Source: an uncultured Armatimonadetes bacterium
GTDB taxonomy: Bacteria > Armatimonadota > UBA5829 > DTJY01
Assembly (NCBI GenBank): GCA_963717145.1
Contig: OY970325.1
Coordinates: 5,219,248 to 5,283,247, forward strand
Length of the DNA: 64,000 nt
Reading direction: 5' to 3'
Made by a program: the position numbers and the translations under genes. Shown one piece after another: positions 25,793 to 63,773 of this stretch. Under the pieces are notes generated by a model that was not told where the DNA came from, did no database searches, and saw only the letters and a list, made by a program, of their open reading frames with translations. Each line of letters begins with the position of its first letter. Positions within the stretch are counted from its first letter, which is position 1.

Positions 25793-27783
25793 ATGGCAGT
25801 CGAACCCTACGATCCGCGACTCTTATCCGCAGCAGACACCGCGACCGAGCACGAATCCGCCCAGGCCGATCCTTCGACAGGCTCAGGAGGCATCACCTGG
25901 CGCGCGCTCCTGATCGGGTTCATCGCCATCATCCCCGGCGTCTTCTGGGGCGTCTACGGCGATGTCGTCTCCCAGACCGACCTGACCTCGACCTCGCTGA
26001 TGATGCCGCCGGTCCTCATCCTGATGGCGCTCCTCGTCCTCAACGGCATCGTCAGGCGCATCAGGCCGATATGGGTGCTCGGCCGCACGGAGTTGATCAC
26101 CATCTACGCGATGCTTACCGTCTCCGTGATCCTCTCCGGCATGGGGATGCTCCAGTTCCTGATGACATCCCTCGGCGCGGTCCCGCACTTTGCCACCCCC
26201 GAGAACGGATGGGGCGCTTACCTCAACATGGTCCCGCACTGGATCATGCCGAAGCTCTCCGCCATCGACGGCTTCTACGTCGGCAACAAGCCGATCCCCT
26301 GGTCTGCGTGGACGAACCCGATCCTCCTGTGGAGCGGATTCCTCTTCGCGATGCTCTTCTGCATGATGTGCATCAACACGATCCTCCGCAAGCAGTGGAT
26401 CGAGCGGGAACGGCTCACATATCCCATAGTCCAACTTCCGCTGGAGATGACCGACCCGAAGAGCCGGTTCTTCTCGAACAGGCTGATGTGGGCAGGGTTC
26501 TTCACCGCCGCCGCACTCGAGACGCTGAACAGCCTCGCGTTCCTCTATCCGAATGTTCCCCAGGTGCAGTTGCGGGCGTTCGACCTTCAGCCGTTCTTCA
26601 GCACCGCGCCGTGGAATGGGGTGGGGTACTTCCCGACGACCTTCTACCCGCTCGCCATCGGACTCGGGTTCGTGCTCGCGACCGACGTGAGCTTCTCGTG
26701 CTGGTTCTTCTACCTCGTGACCAAGGTGGAGGGAGTCCTCACCTCAGCGCTCGGCTGGACGGGTGGGGCGGGCGCGATGAGCGCTCCGCCGTATCTCGCC
26801 CAGCAGAGCGTCGGCGGGTTTATCGGCATCGGCGTCGTGGTGATCTACCTCGCGAGGAATCACCTCAGGGACGTCTTCGCGAAGGTCTTCACCCGCGACT
26901 CCGGCGTTGACGATTCCGAAGAGCCGATGAGCTATCGGATGGCGGTCTTCGGGCTGGGGCTCGGATTCCTCATCATGGTGATATTCTGCGTGGCGGTCGG
27001 CGTCTCTCCGGCTGTGGGGATCGCGTATCTCGGCCTCTACATGCTCTTCGCCACGACGATCAGCCGACTCCGCGCCGAAGCCGGGCCTGCATGGGTGATG
27101 GGCCCGGGTGGGACGCGCTCGACAGCCTCACCCGCCCGATCGGGACCGGGGCATTCAGCGGGGGAAACCTCGTCGCGCTCGCCTACTTCCACTGGTTCAG
27201 CATCGAGATGAGGTGCTGTCCGATGGGCGTGCAGGCCGAGGGGATGAAGATGGCGCAGGCGACCCGAACGAAGCAGCGGGTGATGACGATCGTTCTCCTC
27301 GCGGCGATGGTCATCGGGATCGCGGTCGGATTCTGGGCGTGCCTCGCGGTATGGTACAAGTTCGGCGCGGGGACGGCGAAGGTCGAGCCGTGGCGCACCG
27401 GTATGGGCGCGGCGCCATTCGACCGGGTCACGGACTACATGCAGAACCCGCAGAGGGCCGATGTCGCGGGCATCCTGGCGATCGTCTTCGGCACGGGGTT
27501 CACGTTCCTGCTCAGTCTGATGCGGAGCCGGTTCGTATGGTTTCCGCTCCATCCGGCGGGATACGTGCTCGCGAACACCGGCACGATGTACTGGCTCTGG
27601 TGTCCGTTCCTGCTGGCGTGGATCATCAAGGTCCTGATCATCCGCTACGGCGGGATCAAGGGCTACCGGACCGCGCTCCCATTCTTCCTCGGCCTCGTCC
27701 TCGGCGACTACATAGCCTCGAGCCTCTGGGCCCTCGCGGGCTCCGTTCTCGGCATCACCATGTACCGCTGCTTCCCCTGCTGA
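25793..27783 (+). CDS. Large polytopic membrane protein, paralog 2 (reading frame shifts around 27090-27210)
   Basis: ORF 25793-27211 continues in ORF 27091-27783. Together they align end to end with paralogs 1 and 3 (ILRKQWIERERLTYP, WFFY, FPLHPAGYVL, IRYGG). Confidence 0.55.
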
Positions 27784-28800: not shown

Positions 28801-29034
28801 TGGTCGATGGTTGATGGTTGATGGGGAAACGTCAGCCCTGAGTGTGCTGGTGAATGACGTCGTGTATAGAAGGGCGGGCCACCGAAGGGAGGACATTCCG
28901 ACGACCGCTGACGGGCAGTTCCCGCTAGTTGTGCCTGCCCCCCGTTTCTTGTCCCTCATTTCTGTCCGGTGAAGGAACTCCTCGGCATAAAGATGAATGC
29001 TCTAATCACTAGCTAACCCGCAGAGGTAGGGCGC

Positions 29035-32000
29035 ATGGGCGACAAGCCAAAGAAGGTTCGGACACCGATACCGGCGGAGATCGAGCGGCAAGTAAAAGTC
29101 GAGGCAGGCTTTCGCTGCAGCATACCAAGATGTGGAAGCACGTCAGTCTTGGAGATCCACCATATCGATGAAGACGCGAGCAATCATGATTCCACGAATC
29201 TGCTTGTTCTCTGTTCAATCTGTCACGCGCGTATAACCAGAGGGGAGATCGACCAGAAAGCTTGCCGGATGATCAAGCAGGCCATGCTCTCACACGGCGC
29301 GTCACAAGATGAGTTGCTCGCTATCAAGGACACCATCTTCTCAGAGATGCGCAGGCTGGTTGGTCAGCAGGATGTGTCCAGACCTCTTGACGAAGCCGAG
29401 AAGGGGAATATCGGAGTCCCTCTTGGCGTCTTGGACTCGAGTGGAAGACCGGAGAATGGCTTGGTTCCCGTGCGCCCGCCGTTCGCAGATGATCTGAGGA
29501 TCGACGAGAAAGCGGCTATCATGGACGCTCGGGCGCTCACCGAAGTCGACTACATATTCTTTCGGCGTTACTCGGATGGTCGCTCCTCTGTTATCTCTGC
29601 GTACGTTGTCGATAACACCGACGATAGGCTTACTCACGATGGGCTTGCCCAACTGCATCGAAAAGTCTGGCTGCGTGGCACAGTCCCCCTGCTCTACGTC
29701 TTCCAGCATACTCACATAGACCTGCTCGCCTGTGCAAGAGGAGCGGACTTCTGGAGAGATGACGAGGACAGATGCCACTACAACCCTGTGAAATGTATAC
29801 AGATTGCCGGTGACATAACTAATGAACTGAAACGCCTAGCCGAAGGGACGTTTTGGGAAGACCCGGCCAACAGGGAACTTGCCGATTATACAAAAGCTTC
29901 ACACCAGTGTTTGATACAGGCCGTTGTCGAGGCGGATCGCGACCTAAGAGGTAAGGAGAACCCGACACTCCGTCATCTCCTCCTACTGATGGTGCTGATC
30001 AAGTACCTGGAGGATCGCCGTGTTTTTCCGGAGGGTCGGCTATCGCAATTCAGGCCGAGTGCGGAGACCTTCTTCGACATACTCCGAGGTGGCGATCCAT
30101 CCCAAGTCTACGAATGCCTGGATGCCCTGGAATCCAGGTTTGATGGCGATATATTCGCGTTACCCCGCGTCGATATTACCTCTGAGAGACTACACAGCTT
30201 CGCTCGTCTTGTTGAAGCGAGAACGATAGGGCACCAGAGATATCTCTGGACCAGTTTTCATTCGAATACCTGCCGGTGGAGATCATAAGTCATCTGTATC
30301 AACGCTTCGTTGAAGGTGGTCATGGGGCAGTCTACACCCCACCGTTCCTCGCTGCGCTTCTACTAGATCATGCGATGCCCTACGAAGGGCTACGGGGTGA
30401 CGAACGAGTGCTCGACCCGGCGTGCGGCTCCGGCGTATTCCTAGTCGCTGCTTTTCGTAGACTCGTCAATCACTGGCGAAGCAAACACGGGTGGAAGCCG
30501 CCCGATGTAGAGGTGCTCAAATCCATCGCAAAGCATAGCATATTTGGCGTTGAGCTTGATGAGTTCGCGGTCAGTCTCACGGCTTTCAGTTTGTCATTGG
30601 CCATCTGTGACTCATTACATCCCAACGTTATCTGGGACAGGCTGAAGTTTGATCCCTTGTGTCATTCGAATGTGCTACAATCCGACTTCTTTGAGGTACT
30701 GCTTGCCTCTAGGTTAGGCAAGCGTACGATTCTGAATGATGAGTTCGATGTAGTGCTTGGCAATCCTCCCTTCGTGAGCATTCTGTCTGAGGCAGCCAGT
30801 GAAGTGAACCGCGTTTCTAGACGAGATACTTCCCGTGTACCAGTCTCCGACAAGCAGTTAGCTTATCTGTTTCTAGAGCAATCCTTTAGCATTCTTCGCC
30901 CTGGGGGTCGAGTCTGCCTTATTCAGCCTGCGGGATTGCTTCACAACAGGATGGCCAAGGCGTTCCAGCAGGGCTTGTTTCGGAAGCAGACGATCCATGC
31001 GATTCTGGATTTGGCTTCCATACGTAATCTTTACGACGGGGCCGATCCCAGGACCATCGCAGTCTCGGCCACACACAGCCCGCCAAGAAGCGATCATTGG
31101 ATCGAGCATCTGGTGTTTCGTCGTACAGTTAGCGTCAGAGAACGGATATGTTTCGAGCTAGATCACTATGATCGTTTCACGGTGTCCCAGCATGACGCGC
31201 AGACCGACCCCTATGTATGGAGGGTGAATCTATTCGGTGGAGGTCGTCTTCTCGATCTTTCCAGAAGACTAAGAGAGATGCCGACACTGCGGCAGCATCT
31301 CGACCATATGACTGAACGCAGGGGATGGGAGTATGGGGAAGGGTATATCGCAGGAAAGAAGGGCAAGAGATCGAGAGCCCTGTTCCTAACTGGCAAACCG
31401 CTCCTGCCAGCAGTGGCCTTCACAGATGAAGGGATAGATCACACCCAGCTGTCTACCGTGAAGGAGACCACCTTTGCTTCTCCCCGCAGAGAAGCATTCT
31501 ACACGCCGCCACTTATCTTAATTAAGGAAACAGCCTCTCTTCCCATAGTCCTATGGGATGAGGGGCCGATCGCATACGGACATAGGATTGTGGGCATACA
31601 CGCGCCATCGGCGCAATCAGCCGTCTTGCAGTCTATGTATCAGATGCTCAGAGAGCGGCATGCTACATATCGGTTCTGTACCGCTCTACATAGTACGGAA
31701 GCGGGGATAGACAGAGCTACCTCCATCCGAAAGCAGGATCTGGATGCCCTTCCATATCCCGAAAACGCGGAAGAGCTAGCCTTCTGTGATTGGGAGCAGT
31801 CACTCTGTGATGACGTCACTGGCCTGATGTTTGACTACTTACTGAAGGGAGAGGAGTCAATCCTTCTCAGGACAGCGGCAAGCAATGGAGAACTTGATCA
31901 GTACTCAGGCACGTTTGTCCAGATGCTAGGAAGCATCTACCCGAACCTCAAGGCATCCTTTCCACGGTTCACGAACGGCCTCATCTGCCAACCTTTCTAC

Positions 32001-32228
32001 TTCGACGAACTGCCAGATTTGTCATGGCTAGATGAGCCGATGTCGGGCAAGCTGGACGCGCTTATCTATGACCAGCGGCAGCATCTGCGAACGGTCCGTG
32101 TATTGCGTCTATACCTGGATAATGTGCTGCTGCTGATCAAGCCTGACAGGTTGCGGTATTGGATCAGATCTACGGCCATTCGTGATGCAGATGAAACATT
32201 GCTTCACCTACAGGAGTGGGGTTACTAG
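29035..32228 (+). CDS. HNH nuclease fused to a PglX/MmeI-like gamma-class N6-adenine DNA methyltransferase with a C-terminal specificity region. Two caller ORFs are joined across an apparent 1-nt frameshift at about 30200-30240.
   Basis: HNH at residues 25-70: CSIPRCGSTSVLEIHHIDEDASNHDSTNLLVLCSICH. The helical linker (LLLMVLIKYLEDRRVFPEG, FDGDIFAL) and ISLDQFSFEYLPVEIISHLYQRFV continue in frame 0 upstream of the caller GTG start at 30276. Methyltransferase motif I is VLDPACGSGVFLV and motif IV is VVLGNPPFV. Local GC is clearly below the flanking sequence. Confidence 0.65.
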
Positions 32229-32230
32229 TC

Positions 32231-32971
32231 ATGAACAGCGGTTATCCCTACTCAGCGCCAATCGGGAGGATCACAGCGGGTATTGAGCTGGGCACACTCG
32301 CTAACAAGATTATCGATTTCGTTCGCCAGCAGCTGCCAGCATGGAGGGACCACCCCGACCGTGATGATGTCCAGTCGGAGTTCCGCCTAACCTCCCAACT
32401 CTGTGTATTCCTCAATGCCAGGGCGCGCCAGGCTCGCTTCTCTATGATCCAGTTCCATCACGAGCTACCGCAGCCCCGGAGTCGAAGCGTCGATCTATCA
32501 GTACATCCGTTGGATCCCCTGCAGATCGATGCCCGACTCTTCTCAGTATTTCACCCAGTTCTGGTGTTAGAGTGCAAGCGACTTCCCCCTCCAGATCCAA
32601 AACGCGAGAGGGAGTATGTGACAGGCGATGCGAACAAGCGGAGCGGCGGCATACAACGTTTCAAATTGGGTTTGCATGGTTCTGACACCGATGTCGCGGG
32701 TATGATTGGATTTCTCCAGGAGGCCACCGCTCCACATTGGCATAGCACAATCAACGGATGGATTCTTGAGCTATGCAACGGCACTCCGGCCGATGGATGT
32801 ACTTGGAGCAGTGACGAGGTTCTATCGGAGATCGATTGCAGTGTTTCCGGTGGCGTTACCAGCTACTGCTCAGTTCACTCGAGGACTTCCTCAAGATCAG
32901 GCCAGCCTATCACCATCCATCATGTGTGGGTTGCGATGAACCAGCTACAGGGTGCTTGTAGAACGAGTTGA
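32231..32971 (+). CDS. PD-(D/E)xK-like nuclease-fold protein, translationally coupled to the methyltransferase gene
   Basis: Stop TAG at 32226-32228 and ATG at 32231. Possible nuclease motif SVDLSVHP ... PVLVLECKRL (D ... E-x-K). Confidence 0.45.
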   Translation: MNSGYPYSAPIGRITAGIELGTLANKIIDFVRQQLPAWRDHPDRDDVQSEFRLTSQLCVFLNARARQARFSMIQFHHELPQPRSRSVDLSVHPLDPLQIDARLFSVFHPVLVLECKRLPPPDPKREREYVTGDANKRSGGIQRFKLGLHGSDTDVAGMIGFLQEATAPHWHSTINGWILELCNGTPADGCTWSSDEVLSEIDCSVSGGVTSYCSVHSRTSSRSGQPITIHHVWVAMNQLQGACRTS

Positions 32972-33130
32972 TGCCGGTAAGTGGGGTGGTTGGTGGGGCT
33001 ATCTCAGGGAAAGATGTGACCAAATCGTTCTACAGGGGTTCTGTAGAACGATTTGACGCCGGTAAGTGGGGTATTTGGTGGAGGTAACTCACGGAAAGAC
33101 GCCGCCAACGCGGTCTACAGACAGTCTGTA
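32955..33130. repeat. Boundary repeat block at the right end of the low-GC island: direct repeats of TGTAGAACGAnTTGAnGCCGGTAAGTGGGGT plus two hairpins
   Basis: Copies begin at about 32958 and 33041. Hairpins CAAATCGTTCTACAG/CTGTAGAACGATTTG and CGCCGCCAACgcgGTCTACAG/CTGTAGACggaGTTGGCGGCG. Confidence 0.7.
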
Positions 33131-50638: not shown

Positions 50639-50890
50639 TACACCCGGAGATGTCTGGTCTAGCGCAGCTTTCTTCTGCGGCAACTACGGTATATATACCG
50701 TGCTGTACTTGCCGCATAGTGCGGTAAGTCGCGCACTCCCCCAGGACGTGCCGTTGCCGCCGTCCCGCCGGATGGCCGGCACGGAGGCACGGCCACTACG
50801 GTTTTCGTCGCACCGGCCTGCTTGTCCTGCGAGGCAGGGAAACGGATGGTTTACAATCCCGGGCGCTTTCCACTATCATTGTCCCACGCA

Positions 50891-52870
50891 ATGAACACCC
50901 CGACAGCACCCGGAACCGATACGGCAACACGATACGACCGCGTCACACCGCGCGCGGTGATCCTGTCGCTCATCCTTGCGGTCATCAACGACTACTGGCT
51001 TGTCCAGATCGAGGTCGTGCGCTACTCCTTCGCCACCTATGCCGCGCCGTTCTACAACTGCATCTTCACCCTCCTGGTCGTCACGGCGGCGAGCTTCCTT
51101 GTCAAGCGGCGATTCCCGCGGCTCGCGCTCAGCCGGGTCGAGCTGATAACCGTCTACGTCATGCTCTCGATCACCAGCGCCGTCTGCTCCCACAACATGA
51201 TGGAGGTGCTCGTCTCGCTGATGGGCTACGCGTTCTTCTTCCAGACGCCGGAGAACGGGTGGGGCAAGCTCTTCATCGACAAGATTCCGAAGTGGCTGAC
51301 TGTAAGTGACCCGGAGAGCCTGAAGCACTTCTATTACGGGCACTCCACGCTCTACGATCCGGTCAACTACACTCCGTGGATCGTGCCGGTGCTCTCGTGG
51401 TCGGCGTTCTCGGCAGTCCTGCTCTTCACCATGCTGTGCATCAACAGCATCCTCCGCAAGCAGTGGGTCGAGGCCGAGCGGCTGACCTTCCCGTGTATCA
51501 TGCTCCCCCTCGAGATGACCGAAGAATCCGGCTCGCTCTTCCGAAACCGCTACATGTGGATGGGGTTCGCCATCGCCGGTTTCCTCACGTTTCTGGCCGG
51601 CCTCAACTATCTCTATCCATCGATCCCCTGCGTTCGGATCGTGCGCCAGAACTTCGGGCAGTACATCGTGAACCCACCGTGGAATGCGATCGGCGCGATC
51701 ATCGTCGGCTTCTACTTCTGGGCGATCGGGATCGCGTTCCTGATGCCGCTCGAGCTTTCGTTCTCATGCTGGTTCTTCTACTGGGTCGTCAAGATGGAGA
51801 TAGTCGGCACGCGGATCCTGGGCCTTAACGAGCTGAATGTCGTCGGCGGGAGCTTCGACCGGACCTATCCGTTCCTGATCTCGCAGTCCTACGGCGGGTA
51901 CCTCGGCTTCTTCGCGATGAGCATGTGGTCGAGCCGCCGCTACCTCAGGCGCGTCTTCCGGACCGCCTTCCTCGGCACGAAGGAGGAGGACGAGTCCCGG
52001 GAGGCCCTGAGTTACCGATCGGCGATCCTCGGCCTGATCGGAGGACTGCTGTTCCTGGGCACATTCGCCTACCGAATGGGCATGTCGATCCCGATCATCA
52101 TCGCATTCTTCGTGCTCTATCTGACATTCGCGATCATCATCAGCCGCATCCGGGCCGAACTCGGCTTCCCGACTCACGATATGCACCAGATGAACCCACC
52201 GTACCCCATCACGACGGCTTTGGGCACGGAGAACATCGACGCGCAGAACCTGGTCGGCTTCTCGCTGTTCTACTGGTTCAACCGCACCTACGCGAGCCAT
52301 CCGTCACCGCACCAGTTGGAGGCGTTCAAGCTGTCGGAGCGAGTCGGCAATCCCGCGAGGCAGATGTTCTTCGCCGTCATGATCGCCGGCATCTTCGCGC
52401 TCCCGATCGGATTCTGGAAGCTCCTGCACACGTACTACCACAACGGCGGCGCGACGGCCAACATGGAGATGTGGGCGCTCACGTTCGGAAGCGAGGCTTG
52501 GAACAGGCTCGGCACGTGGATCAAGCAGCCGACCCAGCCGAGCGTGCTCTCGCTCGGGTTCGTTGGCGTCGGGTTCGCGATTTCGACGATCCTCGCGTGG
52601 CTGAGAATGCGGTTCTTCTGGTTCCCATTCCATCCGCTCGCGTATGCCCTCGGCCCGAGTTGGGGGATCGCGCAACTCTGGATGCCGATCTTCATCGGGA
52701 GCACCGCCAAATTCCTCGTGCTGCGGTTCGGGGGACTCAAGCAGTACCGGAAGGCGATCCCTTTCTTCTTCGGGCTGATCCTCGGCGAGATCACGGTCGG
52801 AAGCCTCTGGACGATCATCGGGATCGTGCTCGGCATCCCGACCTACGACTTCTGGCCGGGGAAGATGTAG
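50891..52870 (+). CDS. Large polytopic membrane protein, paralog 3
   Basis: ILRKQWVEAERLTFP, WFFYWVV, FPFHPLAYAL and LRFGG motifs shared with paralogs 1 and 2. 660 aa. Confidence 0.6.
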   Translation: MNTPTAPGTDTATRYDRVTPRAVILSLILAVINDYWLVQIEVVRYSFATYAAPFYNCIFTLLVVTAASFLVKRRFPRLALSRVELITVYVMLSITSAVCSHNMMEVLVSLMGYAFFFQTPENGWGKLFIDKIPKWLTVSDPESLKHFYYGHSTLYDPVNYTPWIVPVLSWSAFSAVLLFTMLCINSILRKQWVEAERLTFPCIMLPLEMTEESGSLFRNRYMWMGFAIAGFLTFLAGLNYLYPSIPCVRIVRQNFGQYIVNPPWNAIGAIIVGFYFWAIGIAFLMPLELSFSCWFFYWVVKMEIVGTRILGLNELNVVGGSFDRTYPFLISQSYGGYLGFFAMSMWSSRRYLRRVFRTAFLGTKEEDESREALSYRSAILGLIGGLLFLGTFAYRMGMSIPIIIAFFVLYLTFAIIISRIRAELGFPTHDMHQMNPPYPITTALGTENIDAQNLVGFSLFYWFNRTYASHPSPHQLEAFKLSERVGNPARQMFFAVMIAGIFALPIGFWKLLHTYYHNGGATANMEMWALTFGSEAWNRLGTWIKQPTQPSVLSLGFVGVGFAISTILAWLRMRFFWFPFHPLAYALGPSWGIAQLWMPIFIGSTAKFLVLRFGGLKQYRKAIPFFFGLILGEITVGSLWTIIGIVLGIPTYDFWPGKM

Positions 52871-54184: not shown

Positions 54185-55694
54185 ATGGCGGATGAAACCA
54201 GATTGACGAGACTCGAGCCCGGCATGCCGATACTCATCGGCGGCGACCGGGTCGTGCACGTCTCGCAGGAATTGGCGGACAGGTTCCGGCCCGGTGACAA
54301 GCTGATCGTCGTGCGCAAGACCGGCGAGATACTGCACATACCCGCGGCCGTCGACCAACTGGCGACCGAGGCCGTCAGCCGCGCCCTTCAGGCATTCCGT
54401 GACCAGCAGAGCGCATCGGACGAGCAGTTCACGCTGTTCTACAATTCGTTCGCAGGCCGCCTCGCCGACGACGCGGTATGGAACGAGATCGCCAGGATCA
54501 ACGTGCAGGATGTCGATCGCGCGAAGTCCAAGGGGCGCTCGACCACGCGCCTCGTCGCCGGCGACAAGATGCGTCGGGACATGATCGCCGGACTTGCACA
54601 GTGGGCGGAACTGGAATCGCGACGTGACAAGGTGACCGGCCGGGTCGAGCACGAGGGCTGGGTCGTCGAGGAGGTCGTCAGCCCGTGCGGGGTCGTCGCG
54701 TTCGTGTTCGAGGGGCGGCCGAACGTCCTGGCCGACGCGACCGGCGTGCTCCGGAGCGGCAACACCGCCGTCTTCCGCATCGGAAGCGACGCCCTGAACA
54801 CGGCACAAGCGATCATGGAACTCGCGCTCCGGCCCGCGTTGATCGACGCCGGACTGCCCGAGTATTCCGTCACGCTTCTGGAGAGCGCCGAGCATTCCGC
54901 CGGATGGGCGCTCTTCGCCGATCCCAGGCTCGCGCTGGCGGTCGCTCGCGGAACGGGCCGAACGGTCGATACACCTGGGCGCCATCGCCCGGGAGGCCGG
55001 GAACGACGTGAGCCTCCATGGAACCGGCGGCGGGTGGATCATCGCCGATACCCACGCCGACCCCGACAAGTTCGAACTCGCGGTCTACAATTCCCTCGAC
55101 CGCAAGGTCTGCAACACGGTCACTGTGATCTGCATCCCCCACTCGCGGGCGGGCGATCTCGTCCCGAAGCTCTTGAGCGCCCTTCAGAAACGCGGCGAGA
55201 AGCTCGGACACGGCTACCGGCTGCACGTCGCTCACGGGAGTGAGGACATAATCCCCAAGGAGCTGTTCACCACCGAGACCGAGGTCCTCCGGGCAACCGG
55301 CGCGGTGCACGAGTTGACCGCGACCGTCTGGCCCGCCGATCAGCTCGGCCACGAGTGGGAGTGGGAGCAGACGCCCGAGGTCACGGTGGTCGCGATCCAC
55401 GATCTCGATGAGGGTATCCGGCTCTTCAACGAGCAGTCGCCGCTGATGGTGGCGTCGCTGATCAGCGAGGATGAGGCCGCGCACGAGAAGCTCCTACGGG
55501 AACTGAACGCGCCATTCATCGGGAACGGCTTCACTCGCTGGGTCGACGGCCAGTACGCGCTCTGTCGCCCGGAACTCGGGCTCTCGAACTGGCAGAACGG
55601 CCGGCTCCTCGCCCGCGCCGCGGTCCTCACCGGCGACGGTGTCTTTACCGTGAAGTTGAGGGTCAAGCAGTCCGATCCGGACGTGCATCGGTAG
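54185..55694 (+). CDS. Gamma-glutamyl-phosphate-reductase-like (ProA-like) aldehyde dehydrogenase with an N-terminal extra domain, split by a frameshift near 54975
   Basis: CGVVAFVFEGRPNVLADATGVLRSGNTAVFRIGS matches the ProA core. The frame switches from ...ALAVARG to IHLGAIAREAGNDVSLHGTGGGWIIAD after a 1-nt shift. Confidence 0.6.
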
Positions 55695-58284: not shown

Positions 58285-59484
58285 CTACAGACCCTTGCAC
58301 GCTTCTTTGGTCACGTCCAGTCCCGCGAACGGTTTCACCTGTCGAATGTCCGGGATGCGTACCCCTTCCCAGATGTAGGTCGGGCTGCCATCGTAGACCA
58401 GGTATAGCTCGGCCACATAGTCATACTCGCGCTTGAGGAGGGCCTCCCGGTTTGCCTTGATCTCGGTCTCAATGGCGTTGACCGCTGCGGCGTCCATTCC
58501 GGCATCGCTTGCGATCTGTTTCCACGGCGCATCACCGGCGGCGCGCTGACCCAGGTATTCAGGGAACGACTTCGGGAACCTGTCTCGGATGACGATCTGC
58601 ACCAGGTCCTCGTTGAGCTCATCCTCGCCGTGCATCGATGTGAACTTGTCCTTACCGTCGACCTGACGCTTGTAGAGGATGTAATGAACGTCGAGTTGGG
58701 GAGTCTGACCGTCCGGTGTGGCCGTTCGCAGGAACGATATGATGGCCGATTCCGCGCGCTTGGCGAACGGGCACTGGCTCATGACCAGTAGGTCGAGAGT
58801 GTTCGTCCTCCGCTCCGCGAACCGTGTCACCTCTATCTCATCGCCGGCCTTGAGGTAGCCGGTCACGACTGTCGGTTTGCCGATTCGCGATCGCAGGTTG
58901 TCGAGCAGAGAGCCCGTGACCTTGTAGGAGTAGGAAGCGTTCCGGATGTATACGTTGCCATCAGCGGCGGATAGAGTTCCCGCGAACGTCACCGTATCCC
59001 AGACCGGGTGGGCCTTCGCCTCATCCAGCTTCGTCATGAGCGACTTGAGAGCTGCGAACTCCTTCTTCGCCGTATCGCTCAGCTTGCCGAAGTCCGCCGC
59101 GCTCACCATATCGGCTGCCTTCGATGCCAGGGAGACTCGCCAGGAATCGATCAGCGCAGAGTCTTTGACGGTAATGGTCCACTCCACATCGGTCGCGATT
59201 CGCTCGAGTTTGGCGGTGAATTCGGTCCTACCTCCTTGTGCGCTCAGACTCCGCTGAGCGGCGTCCACCAACAGCGAGAACTCCAACGGTGCAAGGCTCA
59301 GTTCATAGCGGAGCCCGCTGCTCGCTAATCCCGGATCCGACGCGGCCCGTACGCAGACAGCGGTAGCGAGAGCGAAGGATCCCAGGACCGTCACAACGAC
59401 AATCCACCTGGACCATAATCTCCGCCGACCGAGGAGCATATTGCGGGCCATTTCGCCCAGTGAGTTGCTATGGTGAACAGACAC
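58285..59484 (-). CDS. Membrane-anchored protein with a DsbA-like thioredoxin-fold domain (degenerate CxxC, reads CPFA)
   Basis: N-terminal TM helix. [18 protein letters not shown] in DsbA-like context. Low-moderate confidence. Confidence 0.45.
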
Positions 59485-60475
59485 AGCAAGTTCCAGTGGG
59501 GCCGCTGCGGTTACAAGTACCCGTGTCGGAGGTTACGCCGCAGGAACCGTGTGATTCGGCGATGACCCGGCCAACACATATGTTGCTGCATGGCGTTTCG
59601 GCTGACTGGCACACCGCACTTGTGTGCACCGCAGGACCTGCTGGACCCTCAGTTCCCTGTGGTCCGGTGGGTCCGGTAGCACCAGTGGCCCCGGTAGGTC
59701 CTTGCGGGCCCTGAGGTCCTTGCGGACCTTGCGTCCCTTCTGCACCTGTGTCGCCCTTAGCCCCCGCAAGCCCTTGAAGTCCCTGTGCTCCGGCATCACC
59801 CTTGGGTCCTTGCAGGCCTTGCGGTCCCTGCGGACCGGGTTCACCCTGAGGGCCCTGCAACCCCTGCGTCGCCGCGGTCACCTGCAATGACCCATCCGCG
59901 AATTGGACACCGCCGGTCGATCTGATCACACCGATCACGTCCAGTGCTGTCAGGGGACTCCCGGTTCCGATCCCCAACGACCCGGTGACGTACACGTTGC
60001 CGATAAACCGGCCCGCCGGTCCTGCGCCAAGGTTAGTGACCTGGAACGCCGGCAGGTCGCTCGACGCACTCCCTGCGAACGGCAGTGAGAGGTCTGCCGC
60101 ACGTATTGCATACGGCGCGGTCGTCAGCCGTGTGCGAGGGCAGAGCTCCGCCGAACTGAGAGGCTGCATGCCGAGCCAGTATTGCCTGTCGAACGGCAGA
60201 GCGATCGGTGTCACCGCGCCGAGGTTGACGTTGAATACACCGCCGCTGGTCTGAACGCTCTGAACCTCCTGCCAGAGCGCCGTGCCCTGTCCGCAGGTTC
60301 CCACATCATACAGGCGGAATGTCACGCTCTGCACGCCGTCACTCACCGGCTGGCCGAGCGAGTTGGTCAGCTTGCCCTGTAACGTGAGTATCCTCGGCAC
60401 GTCACCGAGAACTCCAGCGGCCAACAGATGCGACAAAGTTAGCAGCATCACGAATGGAACCAAGTGTGTCTTCAT
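59468..60475 (-). CDS. Secreted protein with collagen-like Gly-X-Y repeats and a Cys-rich C-terminus
   Basis: Signal peptide [22 protein letters not shown]-terminal domain shared with the next gene. About 30 G-X-Y triplets ([22 protein letters not shown]...). C-terminus CVCSP. Confidence 0.65.
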
Positions 60476-60529
60476 ATTCCGTTTCTCCCTACTCGAACCC
60501 TTGATCGGACATAGTTGCCGAGCCGGATG

Positions 60530-61354
60530 CTACAGCTTCATGATGAACGCCAGGGCATAGAACGGCGGGCAGTTCTCATGAGGCTGGTTGCCGCCCGTTG
60601 CGCCCGTCTGTACACTCTCGGGACGCTGCACGCCATCCTGGCCGCCATTACACCCGGCCCAAGCATGGCCGCTCTCAGTATGCGTATGCGACGGCATCTC
60701 GGCCACGGTCAGGGTATGTTGATGCTCTCCGCCGGTGAGCATCGGACTCCCCTTCACGGTGGTATAGGCTACTCCTCCGACATCCTGGCTTGCCCCGACA
60801 AGGAACCTGTCCCTCAGATTGGGCGTCCCGTTCGTCCCGTCGCAGATCACCCAGCCCTGAGGGATCGTGGCAATCGAGCCCGACCACATCAGGATTACAC
60901 CGGACGGTACTACTCCGACTCCTGCCGCAAGCTTTTCAGGCGTGATCGCGCCGTCCTTTACCGTATCCGCTATCTCCGCCCTCACTGCATACGGCGCGGT
61001 CGTCAGTCGCGTGCGAGGGCACAGCTCCGAACCCGTTGCCGGCTGCATCCCGAGCCAATACTGCTTGTCGAACGGCAGACCAATCGCCGTTACTGCACCG
61101 AGGTTCACGTTGAACACTCCGCCGTTGGTCTGAACGTTCTGGACCTCCTGCCACAGAGCTGTGCCTTGCCCGCACGTTTCCACGTCGTAGAGCCGGAATG
61201 TCACACTCTGCACCCCGTCACTCACCGGCTGGCCGAGCGAATCGGTCAGCTTGCCCTGAAGTGTCAATACTCTCGGCACCTCGCCGAATGCACCGGCGGC
61301 CAGTGCACATAACATCATTGTTACTACGGCATATCGCAACACAAGCGTCCTCAT
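60530..61354 (-). CDS. Secreted protein with a phage tail-collar (MdpB-like) C-terminal domain. Shares its N-terminal domain with the collagen-like protein.
   Basis: AAGGAGG RBS before the ATG. Signal peptide MRTLVLRYAVVTMMLCALAAGAFG. C-terminal LMWSGSIATIPQGWVICDGTNGTPNLRDRFLVGA ... NCPPFYALAFIMKL is the tail-collar signature. Confidence 0.65.
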   Translation of the reverse strand: MRTLVLRYAVVTMMLCALAAGAFGEVPRVLTLQGKLTDSLGQPVSDGVQSVTFRLYDVETCGQGTALWQEVQNVQTNGGVFNVNLGAVTAIGLPFDKQYWLGMQPATGSELCPRTRLTTAPYAVRAEIADTVKDGAITPEKLAAGVGVVPSGVILMWSGSIATIPQGWVICDGTNGTPNLRDRFLVGASQDVGGVAYTTVKGSPMLTGGEHQHTLTVAEMPSHTHTESGHAWAGCNGGQDGVQRPESVQTGATGGNQPHENCPPFYALAFIMKL

Positions 61355-61400: not shown

Positions 61401-62266
61401 CTACTCCACAACCTCCAGATCATCGGCCTTGCGAGGCTGGACAACCGCGTCGAGCACGCTCCCCCGCACGCGCACACCTGATATTCCGCTCACCAACACG
61501 TACCCCCCGACCTCCGGTACCGTGGTGAGATTCGCCTTGGCCACTCTGAGACCCGTCTCCCAAAACGGTGACTTCGATCCGTCGTTGATCACGATGTAGT
61601 CGGCGTAGCTGTTGTCGATAACTACCCCGCTGGTACGAATAAAGAGGCCCACATTGTTCACCCCGATTGCGCCGAGTACCCCCCGCTGGCCCAGCGGCGG
61701 AACACCCAGATTGGCCCCCCGACCTGGCGATTGATCATGAAGATCCCTGCGAGTGGATCTCCCTGGCCCACTACCGCGAGCATGGGGTTCAGAATGATCC
61801 GCTCTCCGTTCAAAGTAGATACACTGCCAACCACATTGATCAGGCATCCCTCGAGCAGCGAGGCGGTCTCTCCTCCGATTCCGACCAGTGCAATGCCGCT
61901 CGACCTGTCCGATGCTTCGGCGTAAATGCGGTCGGCAAAGCAGCCCGGCTCGGCGGTCACCACCAGAGACGCGAGTGCCAGGCGCATCCCGTCTCCCTGG
62001 AGCTTCGCCAATCCGGGTGACGATACGAGCAATGGCGGCGACTCCTCGGCAGACCACACGCCGAGTTGGGCCATTCGCTGCCCCGCCACGGCTGCCCCGA
62101 TGGTGAGCTGGCCAATGCTTACAGTGGCGACGCTGTTCCCGCCGACCATTCGCTCGCCGCCGCACGTGTTGGCAGACCAGCTAATCGCATAGTCGTCCGC
62201 CGCCACTTGCCCGGCGCACACCGCCATCAAGAGGATCACCGGCACAACAATGTACAGCTTGCTCAT
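61401..62266 (-). CDS. Secreted hypothetical protein, split by a frameshift in a G6 homopolymer near 61727-61732
   Basis: Signal peptide MSKLYIVVPVILLMAVCAGQVAA. ORF 61658-62266 continues in ORF 61401-62165 after a 1-nt shift at GGGGGG. Confidence 0.45.
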
Positions 62267-62647
62267 CTTTCCCTCCTTTCATTCATAGCCCATAAAACAG
62301 AACACCCGCGTGCACTACATCGAGCAACCCACGGAAAGCTCGGAGTGTACAGCGGGTATAGTTATCTTCTACTCTCATCTGATGGAAAAGTCAATAGATG
62401 TAAGAGGGATTGCCGAAAAACCGGTATTATTACCAGTTGGTTGTCATGCGTGCGTTCCGTCGCAGGCATCGCGGGGAGGTTCGGAACAGACACAAAAAAA
62501 GTGGCCCGGTCCGCCGAAGCAGACCGAGCCGAGTCAGAAAGGAGTGATTATGTACCGATTACTTCCCGAACAACGATCAATACTTATTATCGGCCAACCC
62601 GCGCGAATCTTCAGGTCTTTTTGCCAGGTAATGGTTTGTGGTCTATG

Positions 62648-62768
62648 GCTGATGGTTAATGGGGAACGGGGGATGGGCAATGGTCCGGCCATGAACCATC
62701 AACCATCCCCCATGAGCCATTCCGGTCTCCGGCATCAACCATTGACCATCAGCCATCAACCATTCCCC
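62648..62768. repeat. Long hairpin built from GGTTGATGG-type repeats, immediately 3' of the minus-strand gene 62769-63443
   Basis: GCTGATGGTTAATGGGGAACGGGGGATGGGCAATGGTCCGGCCATGAACCATCAACCATCCCCCATGAGCCATTCC ... Short relative at 28803-28830. Confidence 0.8.
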
Positions 62769-63651: not shown

Positions 63652-63773
63652 AGTAAACAGGCCTCCCAACCATGGTAAACAGGCCTCCCAACCATGGTAA
63701 ACAGGCCTCCCAACCGTGGTAAACAGGCCTCCCAACCGTGGTAAACAGGCTTTCCGACCATGGTGAACAGAGG
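63652..63773. repeat. Tandem array of about 5.5 copies of a 22-bp unit (GGTAAACAGGCCTCCCAACCAT)
   Basis: Direct tandem repeats with no unique spacers. Confidence 0.85.

Follow-up and report, generated by a model that had tools for sequence, protein, structure and literature searches.

Two short fibre genes of a probable mosaic adhesive trimer type, with two candidate accessory genes, in an uncultured Armatimonadetes bacterium

Gene content of the locus

We characterized a cassette of four genes in a window of 64 kb, by which we mean the whole stretch of DNA that was analysed. The genes lie on the minus strand in the order X-B-A-Z and are separated by gaps of 46, 54 and 16 nt. A and B encode fibre-like proteins that share a base domain (N-domain) and differ in their C-terminal tips; X and Z flank this pair. 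The features are as follows.

62503..62530, minus strand: terminator-like hairpin and T-run (12 pairs, 9 of them G-C, then TTTTTTT)
61401..62266, minus strand: gene X, first gene of the cassette, a secreted protein of ~290-305 aa
60530..61354, minus strand: gene B, short fibre of 274 aa (ORF; ATG at 61354, stop at 60530)
61283-61354, minus strand: signal peptide of B (by eye)
60977-61282, minus strand: base domain of B (BLASTP against A)
60917-60976, minus strand: linker of B, 20 aa, low-confidence, containing DGAITPEKLA (AF2)
60533-60916, minus strand: tail-collar-type tip of B (PHROG 5795/1800; PDB 9qgo, 6ov6, 9nxk)
59468..60475, minus strand: gene A, collagen-like fibre of 335 aa (ORF)
60404-60475, minus strand: signal peptide of A (by eye)
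60098-60403, minus strand: base domain of A (BLASTP against B)
59864-60097, minus strand: stalk-repeat region of A (match to the Bd2133 repeat)
59630-59863, minus strand: 26 Gly-X-Y triplets of A (Pfam Collagen)
59471-59629, minus strand: Cys-rich tail of A, 53 aa with 8 Cys (sequence)
58285..59451, minus strand: gene Z, 388 aa counted from MARNML (ORF; sequence identical to P0121)
58366-58830, minus strand: C-terminal GILT/DsbA-like thioredoxin fold of Z, aa 208-362 (hhalign, Foldseek)

The hairpin is placed 3' of a preceding 224-aa ORF and 5' of X and, judged by its sequence, is likely to form the upstream boundary of an X-B-A-Z transcription unit. No terminator-like sites were found from X through Z. 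The four genes probably form an operon.

The original prediction had described tandem secreted paralogs with a common N-terminal domain and no phage structural genes nearby. Both parts were borne out: the two ORFs were found at the predicted positions, and the absence of phage genes held across the window (~45 ORFs, Pfam or PHROGs), where neither structural nor replication genes of a phage were detected. The prediction had recognised neither the fibre family nor the place of the pair in a cassette with X and Z. The 224-aa neighbour had no match in PHROGs, the GC content of the locus was typical for the window and an Rfam search over the window found nothing. No convincing inverted repeats were found flanking the tips, and an inversion switch for the tips was rejected on this ground. 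Two other candidates were also set aside. DUF6785 was considered as a component of the system, but there are three copies in 64 kb and its nearness is probably incidental; for a ProA-like enzyme encoded by the ORFs at 54185-55694, Pfam gave no support.

A common base domain in A and B

A and B align by BLASTP over aa 1-126 with 75% identity (E 7e-68), and there is no match beyond aa 126. A conserved domain of about 120 aa had been proposed; the sharing stands, as aa 1-126, while we give the size of the domain as ~100 aa after the signal peptide, starting at residue 25 in both proteins. Over the mature N-domain (101 aa), A and B have 86% protein identity and 81% DNA identity, and at the DNA level the base domain forms a direct repeat (60097-60423 and 60976-61302) with a spacing of 879 nt. 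The predicted signal peptides are present in both proteins as judged by eye: the n-region is basic, a hydrophobic core follows, and the cleavage site, with small residues, immediately precedes a conserved [DE]VPR.

Structure prediction, which had been suggested as a check, gave an AF2 model of the base domain as a beta sandwich with a pLDDT of ~90 or more. A search of this model against the PDB yielded no specific structural relative, and the domain has no Pfam model and zero family matches in PHROGs. A scan of viral contigs for the N-domain profile found nothing, though this is a weak negative as a single peptide pattern was used. Searching for homologues with the N-terminal 180 aa of A returned 6 proteins, from candidates limited by the word index. 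The base domain was detected in 77,564 cluster representatives, usually as residues 25-125 directly behind the leader, and is the defining feature of a bacterial family of very large size. It is joined there to collar tips, collagen, beta-helix, Peptidase_S74, BclA_C, Lcl_C, H_lectin, PKD and other domains. Pfam and NCBIfam searches of A and B found no LPXTG, lipobox, beta-barrel or sorting domain.

One characterized group carrying this type of domain comprises the mosaic adhesive trimer (MAT) fibres of Bdellovibrio bacteriovorus, such as Bd2133, Bd1334 and Bd2439 (Caulton et al. 2024, PMC10769870). These were studied experimentally and localised on the cell surface; their N-domain is likewise without a specific PDB relative, and Table S3 of the same study lists MAT members in the PVC-group, Omnitrophica and Saprospiraceae, the last with a collagen-like tip (PMC10769870). 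As yardsticks of the MAT superfamily we took a beta-rich N-domain of ~130 aa directly behind the signal peptide, a trimeric stalk of intertwined repeats, exchangeable tips on a constant base, and a surface location with binding to foreign epitopes. The NCBIfam model NF053851, Bdello_MAT_N, matched aa 15-89 of B (E 1.5e-7, 31.3 bits) and of A (E 1.2e-5, 25.1 bits), covering only the first half of the profile, whose curated cut-off of 60 bits defines the Bdellovibrio subfamily. It matched 51 of 52 homologues (best E 4.3e-12), again below the cut-off. Because the scores fall under 60 bits, A and B are, by profile comparison, relatives of the Bdellovibrio MAT subfamily and not its members.

Tips of A and B

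Behind the base domain and stalk-repeat region, A contains 26 uninterrupted Gly-X-Y triplets (aa 205-282), a count that replaces the earlier estimate of about 30. A search for the Collagen domain was positive (PF01391, 52.2 bits, cut-off 27.2), and the Cys-rich tail that had been noted was confirmed as 8 Cys in the 53 aa after the collagen region. Orthologues of A at loci L024, L026, L028 and L033 have the same tail, VHTSA.C...C.VTSDTG.C...CCVC. Upstream of the triplets, aa 164-203 match one stalk repeat of Bdellovibrio Bd2133 (PDB 8ond_A, E 1.7e-6). The NCBIfam adhesin models Lcl (63 bits, cut-off 500), SclB (55, cut-off 325) and SclA (46, cut-off 400) matched A within the collagen region only; neither BclA_C nor Lcl_C was found in A with Pfam, and BclA in the PDB gave only a weak match.

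For B, the predicted tail-collar domain is well founded despite marginal Pfam matches to Collar (PF07484, 18 bits, cut-off 24, 22 profile positions only) and Gp10_C (PF21939, 20.9 bits, cut-off 27). Residues 126-274 matched PHROG 5795 (E 2.4e-27), PHROG 1800 (E 7e-24) and the tail fibre of PDB 9qgo (E 3.7e-11), and the tip also matched collar and 'microcystin-dependent' proteins in BFVD (E 5e-7). We conclude from these alignments that aa 126-274 of B are homologous to phage tail-collar fibre tips. Two histidines of the PSHTH motif, H223 and H225, are nearly invariant among 52 homologues, and each of the PDB entries 9qgo, 6ov6 and 9nxk contains three chains of identical sequence. The same collar tip type is found elsewhere joined to type IV pilin N-termini. 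The stalk of A comprises one Bd2133-type repeat and the collagen region, and that of B only the 20-aa low-confidence linker.

Comparison of close relatives showed at least five tip types on one base. Identity of the base domain was 78-91% across six genes, whatever the tip type. Remnants were found at two loci: L031 carries what is left of a collar tip behind a different tip, and L029 has an N-domain remnant behind a collar gene. Recent gene conversion between A and B was considered and rejected, as their base domains are no closer to each other than those of different genomes. The cassette in relatives adjoins genes for NrdR, DUF6785, DnaX and YbaB.

Genes X and Z

X is split by a frameshift in this genome, with aa 1-184 encoded at 61715-62266 and the C-terminal 104 aa at 61401-61718 in another frame. 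The cause is the loss of 1 nt in a poly-G run at ~61715-61720, where the window has G6 and locus L026 has GGCGGGG. A 202-aa ORF matches aa 1-184 of X from L024, L026 and L031 with 59-65% identity, and the remainder of X has 81% identity in the other frame. No match to X was found in Pfam (E up to 10), PHROGs or the PDB. An AxA|D cleavage site is present in every copy of X; a lipoprotein assignment was rejected, given this site and the absence of the leader Cys in L033. X stands immediately upstream of an N-domain fibre gene at 10 of 10 loci, and in L024, L026 and L029 the stop of X and the start of the fibre gene overlap by 4 nt. The X-bearing loci are all close relatives (X identity at least 60%), so the adjacency may reflect shared ancestry instead of function. 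More distant N-domain loci (Terriglobia, L028) had no X nearby.

Z begins with a hydrophobic segment, followed by an alpha/beta domain, then an OB-like barrel and, at the C-terminal end, a thioredoxin fold; the pLDDT of its AF2 model is 81. We found 12 Z homologues. Pfam thioredoxin and DSBA models gave no match even at E up to 10, and no PHROG family matched. The fold was identified by hhalign against the GILT/DSBA protein P0132 (probability 98.6%, E 7.5e-16) and by Foldseek, which returned mouse GILT (6nwx, E 8.5e-5) and Staphylococcus aureus DsbA (3bck, TM 0.69, rmsd 3.2 over 164 aligned columns). At its active site Z has the motif CPFA, with only one Cys (C227). Both C227-P228 and S356-P357 are invariant (11 sequences for Cys/Pro), and a second Cys at the fourth position of the motif was found in none of the 11 Z sequences (Ala in 9, Gly in 2). 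As it has no second active-site Cys, Z is not a classical DsbA-type oxidase. A lipoprotein assignment was rejected here also: the context of the Cys is unlike a lipobox, and this Cys is absent from distant homologues.

Z is found behind collagen/Cys-tail fibres only, at 5 of 5 such loci. The pairing with collagen is kept in L028, where the identity of Z is 41%; for the Z homologue in L027, a fibre gene does not adjoin.

Discussion

We consider it fairly probable (roughly 0.65) that A and B belong, as short members, to the MAT chimeric-fibre superfamily and are accompanied by candidate accessory genes. The description of these proteins as secreted, fibre- or adhesin-like and not part of a prophage fits their signal peptides, their chromosomal context, the gene order in relatives and the non-phage neighbours. 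Domestication of a phage fibre, as had been suggested, applies only to the tip of B and perhaps to the collagen of A and does not extend to the base domain, which matches no PHROG.

We infer a location at the cell surface and a role in adhesion. A and B would be exported by Sec and would assemble as trimers, since collagen helices are obligate trimers and the entries for related tips contain three chains. The base domain may dock both fibres on the same envelope element, giving one anchor for alternative binding tips. The tip of B probably binds a surface glycan, by analogy with phage fibre tips, and tips may be swapped as cassettes, by recombination where the base domain ends. X, which always precedes a base-domain gene, is a candidate anchor, chaperone or co-subunit for this domain. 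Z, which occurs only behind Cys-tailed collagen fibres, may act in the periplasm on the A-type Cys-rich cap, as a thiol-disulfide catalyst or a chaperone; the cap itself would lock the collagen trimer. An extension of these ideas, which we regard as speculative and rather improbable, is a self-contained display system in which X is the dock for the N-domain, Z is a tip-specific folding catalyst and the poly-G run of X acts as a phase switch for both fibres. If this were true, X, read here as coupled in translation to the base-domain gene at each locus irrespective of the tip, would be the docking partner of the MAT N-domain, a question left by the Bdellovibrio work, and Z a bacterial counterpart to the disulfide-dependent registration of animal collagens.

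Other explanations of the fibre pair were weighed against a MAT assignment. Many tail-fibre families in PHROGs, and phage fibre tips of solved structure, are matched by the tip of B and the collagen of A, and the sequence available beyond X amounts to only 2.6 kb. A and B could on this view be tail-fibre remnants of a prophage or tailocin, the rest of which has decayed or lies just outside the window. This is very improbable and largely refuted; relatives also speak against an intact prophage beyond the window on the 3' side, the refuting case that had been named. Virion fibres normally have no signal peptides, but both proteins open with one; no PHROG was matched by the N-domain, by X or Z, or by the 224-aa neighbour; the 59 kb to one side of the locus hold chromosomal genes only, and GC content at the locus does not depart from that of the window; relatives carry the cassette among the NrdR, DUF6785, DnaX and YbaB genes; and the base domain recurs across the 77,564 clusters, usually directly after a leader.

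The two remaining alternatives concern the fate of the secreted proteins. It is unlikely, although less so than the other alternatives, that A and B are released as soluble lectin-like or bacteriocin-like proteins whose N-domain serves export or targeting and not anchoring. The lack of any recognisable anchor (LPXTG, lipobox, beta-barrel or sorting domain) and the small size of both proteins (274 and 335 aa) are consistent with release, and even in Bdellovibrio the N-domain is without a known binding partner (PMC10769870). Against release, the Bdellovibrio MATs are surface-localised (PMC10769870), searches of the cassette with Pfam, NCBIfam and PHROGs found no toxin or immunity domains, and the attachment of collar tips to type IV pilin N-termini places this tip on a display scaffold. 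We find it slightly less likely again that the pair forms a structural coat, either a sheath or a 'hairy nap' like that of BclA, providing hydration, protection or spacing, with tips that serve stability. The layout of A, with attachment domain, collagen stalk and C-terminal cap, is that of BclA-type proteins, BclA_C and Lcl_C are among the partners of the same N-domain, and the weak PDB match to BclA points the same way. Fast tip replacement in close relatives is, however, typical of specificity determinants and not of a uniform coat, the tip of B comes from a receptor-binding family and the NCBIfam adhesin models were matched through the collagen repeats alone.

A relationship to MAT fibres has wider consequences. 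In 2024 MAT proteins were presented as a toolkit with which a predator recognises its prey; the present locus, together with the database counts, points to a wider distribution. The base domain, which in many phyla carries lectins, beta-helices, collagen stalks or phage receptor-binding tips, may be among the commonest unannotated secreted-protein modules in bacteria. The cassette offers two leads that the large Bdellovibrio proteins lacked, namely a small candidate partner constantly linked to the base domain (X) and a tip-specific candidate partner of thioredoxin fold for a Cys-locked collagen fibre (Z), and the shortness of A and B is convenient for structural study of how the base domain attaches.

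Comparison with known systems

The tip of B resembles phage collar tips and 'microcystin-dependent protein' over aa 126-274; the likeness takes in the ...PPFYALAFIMKL C-terminus as well as the histidines of the PSHTH motif, which are conserved. Unlike phage collar fibres, B is a non-phage protein: in place of the virion-attachment domain it has a base domain of bacterial type, preceded by a signal peptide. A phage-type tip on a bacterial scaffold, and its diversification, are also seen in PilV and other type IV pilin-tail collar fusions (PMC9881135). The scaffold of the PilV fusions is a pilin and variation arises by programmed inversion (PMC9881135), whereas here the MAT base domain serves as scaffold and gene duplication and cassette replacement appear to underlie the variation. 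A is organized like BclA of Bacillus, Scl1/Scl2 of Streptococcus and Lcl of Legionella, in which an attachment domain is followed by a Gly-X-Y stalk and then by a terminal globular or trimerising module. It differs from these proteins in having no LPXTG, BclA_C or Lcl_C, in its short cap (53 aa, 8 Cys) and in an attachment that would be made via the MAT N-domain.

Z shares with GILT and DsbA a thioredoxin fold with a helical insertion, in which helix 1 starts with the active-site Cys-Pro and the cis-Pro loop is conserved, and, as predicted from sequence, extracytoplasmic targeting. It departs from them in having CPFA in place of CXXC, in its two additional domains at the N-terminal side, of which one is OB-like, and in forming a tiny family (12 proteins) tied to one type of fibre gene.

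The closest likeness of the fibres is with the Bdellovibrio MATs. In both, a signal peptide is followed at once by a homologous beta-rich base domain (E 1e-5 to 1e-7), there is a stalk repeat of the form GxxGIGTxxPxxxLxV (here in A), and paralogues differ in swappable C-terminal tips that include phage-related folds. The Bdellovibrio proteins are of ~1000 aa, whereas A and B, at 274-335 aa, are three to four times shorter; A carries a collagen region, which would form a triple helix, and a Cys-rich cap; B has a tail-collar tip with the stalk almost absent, and neither type is among the solved Bdellovibrio tips. The Bdellovibrio genes are 21 and scattered, in contrast to the two tandem genes found here in a cassette with X and Z, and nothing marks the present host as a predator. 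The kind of fibre is already known, and A and B are an interesting example of it and not a new kind.

Tandem fibre genes with a common base and different tips

The window encodes two fibre proteins, A (collagen-like) and B (with a phage tail-collar-type tip), which share an N-terminal base domain and carry distal modules homologous to collagen and to a phage receptor-binding tip, respectively. The genes are flanked by X, encoding a secreted protein, and Z, encoding a thioredoxin-fold protein:

61401-62266, minus strand: gene X, with a frameshift site at 61715-61720 where one base is lost in a poly-G run
60530-61354, minus strand: gene B, 274 aa
59468-60475, minus strand: gene A, 335 aa
58285-59451, downstream of A: gene Z, 388 aa, identical to protein P0121

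A and B lie head to tail, each behind a purine-rich ribosome-binding site. BLASTP of A against B found 75% identity at aa 1-126 (E 7e-68) and no similarity beyond aa 126; the mature base domains (101 aa, [DE]VPR to TTAPYA.R) have 86% protein and 81% DNA identity. The DNA direct repeat (60097-60423 and 60976-61302) runs from within the last part of the signal-peptide coding sequence to an abrupt end after PYA[IV]RA. ORF positions, BLASTP and the DNA repeat bear out the original prediction of two ORFs with a common N-terminal domain. In A, a region of ~78 aa lies between the base and an uninterrupted collagen region (aa 205-282; Pfam Collagen 52 bits, cut-off 27), followed by a 53-aa tail with eight Cys; the predicted Gly-X-Y repeats and Cys-rich tail are thus present, but the triplets number 26 rather than about 30. 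In B, a 20-aa linker leads to a C-terminal domain of ~128 aa ending in PPFYALAFIMKL.

Both base domains contain the Cys pair of their clade (aa 61 and 112; ETCGQG, ELCPRT), which may form a clade-specific disulfide; L035, the locus of a relative, and most of the distant homologues lack the pair and have a loop shorter by 2 aa.

The base domain and its relation to MAT fibres

No Pfam family matched the base-domain region of A, B or 137 further family members. The NCBIfam model NF053851 (Bdello_MAT_N, 'mosaic adhesive trimer family chimeric fiber protein') aligned to aa 15-89 of both B (E 1.5e-7, 31 bits) and A (E 1.2e-5, 25 bits), in each case under its curated cut-off of 60 bits. These matches are no fluke, since all but one of 52 homologues also hit this model, with E values down to 4.3e-12. 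In addition, aa 164-203 of A align to a stalk repeat of Bd2133, a mosaic adhesive trimer (MAT) fibre of Bdellovibrio, in PDB 8ond (E 1.7e-6), an alignment that provides a second, independent link. The structure prediction proposed for the common domain yielded a confident beta sandwich in the AF2 model of B (aa 26-117, pLDDT ~90 or more), with a disordered linker and a tip of medium confidence. Foldseek of the base-domain model against the PDB returned only generic Ig-like folds, none at E <=1e-3, in agreement with the paper defining the MAT family, in which the MAT N-domain has no structural homologue in the PDB (PMC10769870).

A base-domain profile matched 77,564 of 1.84 billion cluster representatives (clusters at 50% identity) at E <=1e-3 and 42,680 at E <=1e-10, yet in A, B and the 137 further members no Pfam family matched it, which makes this domain a large annotation gap. 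It usually occupies residues 25-125 and at times occurs in 2-4 tandem copies per protein. Among the best matches its partners included Gly_rich_2, Collar, Peptidase_S74, MopE-type repeats, PKD, Kelch, Laminin_G_3, H_lectin, BclA_C and Lcl_C. Most matches to B combine base and collar tip, and some pair the base with collagen or unrelated C-termini. In Terriglobia the base is N-terminal in proteins of ~710-890 aa, whose C-terminal part, read by eye, appears to be a beta-helix; one such gene adjoins ORFs that, also by eye, are glycosyltransferase-like and sugar-nucleotide-enzyme-like.

The tip of B

There is little doubt that the tip of B is a homologue of phage tail-collar fibre tips, because more specific libraries match it despite sub-threshold scores for Pfam Collar and Gp10_C. 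The matches include PHROG (phage protein family) 5795, a tail protein (E 2.4e-27), PHROG 1800, a tail collar fiber protein (E 7e-24, aligned to the profile end), the PDB tail fibres 9qgo (E 3.7e-11), 6ov6 and 9nxk, each entry holding three same-sequence chains, and, by Foldseek, collar and 'microcystin-dependent' proteins of BFVD (E 5e-7). The tail-collar assignment of the original prediction is therefore supported by PHROG, PDB and BFVD, but not by Pfam Collar at its threshold. Both histidines of a PSHTH motif are kept in at least 90% of sequences among 52 homologues; tips of this type in T4 gp12 and gp37 use HxH motifs to coordinate metal ions at the three-fold axis.

Matches to B also place the collar tip behind type IV pilin N-termini, so the tip is displayed on at least two bacterial scaffolds; a PilV-collar fusion is on record (PMC9881135). 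In the pilin fusions P0037, P0040, P0042, P0063, P0065, P0068 and P0120 (pilin part PF07963), which are 270 aa long, the tips are 57-68% identical to that of B.

A cassette of four genes

Loci of close relatives from metagenomes (L024-L026, L029-L036) show that the A-B pair is part of a larger unit. In all 10 loci found, X (290-308 aa) is the gene immediately upstream of a base-domain fibre gene, with a 4-nt overlap of stop and start codons in several of them. Because the X-bearing loci are all closely related, this linkage could be inherited rather than selected. X has no relative in Pfam, PHROG or the PDB. It is probably not a lipoprotein, as all copies have an AxA|D signal-peptidase site and one lacks the leader Cys.

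The X of the window is split: aa 1-184 fall within ORF 61658-62266 and the remaining 104 aa (81% identity) continue in another frame down to 61401. At the break the window has G6 and L026 has GGCGGGG, a difference that may reflect a homopolymer assembly error, real inactivation or a phase-variable tract. Elsewhere in the window, ORFs 54185-55243 and 55008-55694 (plus strand) overlap in different frames, neither with a Pfam match, and may be a second frameshifted gene; if so, assembly errors would be favoured as the cause of the break in X.

Z was found downstream of every complete collagen/Cys-tail fibre gene (the window, L024/L025, L026, L033 and L028) and behind no collar-type or other fibre among the loci found. 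Although the Z of L028 is only 41% identical, the fibre next to it, 597 aa long, keeps the tail pattern VHTSA.C...C.VTSDTG.C...CCVC; a distant Z in L027 lacks a neighbouring fibre gene. The search for Z homologues yielded only 12. The C-terminal half of Z has a thioredoxin fold: it aligns with a GILT/DSBA protein (hhalign, probability 98.6%, E 7.5e-16), and the AF2 model (pLDDT 81) matches mouse GILT (E 8.5e-5) and S. aureus DsbA (TM 0.69) in Foldseek. By the same search the middle barrel of Z resembles OB folds, among them CcmE and PriB. At the active-site position the sequence is C-P-F-A; this Cys and Pro are invariant in 11 aligned sequences, as is the cis-Pro loop (S356-P357), and a second active-site Cys is absent. 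A Cys within the last seven residues is also kept in 10/11. Given the CPFA site, Z cannot be a classical two-Cys oxidase; it may act by a mixed-disulfide or isomerase mechanism or have a non-redox role.

Intergenic gaps are short (X-B 46 nt, B-A 54 nt, A-Z 16 nt), no terminator-like sites occur between the cassette genes, and a strong hairpin plus T-run closely precedes X. Compared with L024 and L026, the window has B as an insertion between X and A. The C-termini carried by relatives, on bases 78-91% identical, are of the collagen/Cys-tail type, the collar type and at least three further types. Base similarity is independent of tip type, the B base being nearest that of the L024 collagen fibre (91%). 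Comparison across genomes gave no sign of recent A-B gene conversion, as the A and B bases are no more alike than those of different genomes. In L031 (3847-4035) a fibre with another tip is followed by the out-of-frame last residues of a collar tip (...GQPHENRPPFYALCFIMK), in L029 (2061-2186) a collar fibre gene precedes a 39-aa remnant of a second base domain, and in L036 (2034-2153) a second fibre gene begins directly after the first.

Genomic context

The context of A and B is chromosomal and non-phage. As originally predicted, no other phage structural genes are nearby, and no phage structural, replication or integration genes occur among ~45 ORFs scanned for phage and other domains across the 64-kb window. 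These ORFs encode ABC transporters, sulfatases, glycoside hydrolases, a two-component system, CoA ligases, three DUF6785 proteins, a PIN protein and a low-GC restriction-modification island. GC around A and B does not stand out from that of the window. No PHROG family matched the base domain, X, Z or a 224-aa upstream neighbour, and nothing was found for the base-domain profile in viral contigs, scanned with one pattern only. Other features of the window were as follows:

343-2499, 25793-27211 and 50822-52870: DUF6785 paralogues, two of three with DUF6784
~29000-33000: low-GC island (GC 0.53 against ~0.62; GC3 ~0.58)
62684-62766: 43-nt repeat unit, 1.9 copies, inverted repeats nearby
63653-63770: 22-nt tandem repeat, 5.4 copies, 93% matches, no gene assigned

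The middle DUF6785 copy ends at profile position 409 of 498. Members of this family also flank the cassette in L024 and L026, which its multi-copy nature probably explains. With genes for an HNH-like protein and an Eco57I/MmeI-type N6 methylase, the island looks like a horizontally acquired restriction-modification element. The 43-nt repeat lies around the 3' end of the 224-aa ORF (stop codon 62769), which is upstream of X; neither repeat matched Rfam. An ARAGORN 'tRNA-Ala(cgc)' (54463-54562, minus strand, 100 nt) looks like a false positive, given its length and its position within an ORF.

Proposed working and comparison with MAT fibres

Base-domain homology places A and B, at the level of sequence, in the MAT superfamily, and they would most likely work like MAT fibres. 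We propose that X, B, A and Z are co-transcribed and that A and B would be exported via Sec and trimerise, the common base docking both to one envelope element while the tips bind external ligands. X may be a partner of the base domain, and Z a thiol-disulfide isomerase-like helper or chaperone for the Cys-rich cap, which would fix the register of the collagen helix.

The original observation is sound, and the fibre class itself is already published: MAT-type proteins beyond Bdellovibrio were known from the PVC-group, Omnitrophica, Saprospiraceae (with a collagen-like tip) and other bacteria (PMC10769870, Table S3). We found no description of X, Z or the X-B-A-Z cassette, which, with incomplete literature coverage, amounts to no more than absence of evidence; testable leads can be drawn from the cassette. 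Compared with the MAT fibres of Bdellovibrio, A and B fall outside the curated subfamily and are short, A having a collagen stalk and Cys cap and B a tail-collar tip, and their genes stand in tandem with two linked accessory genes, X and Z.
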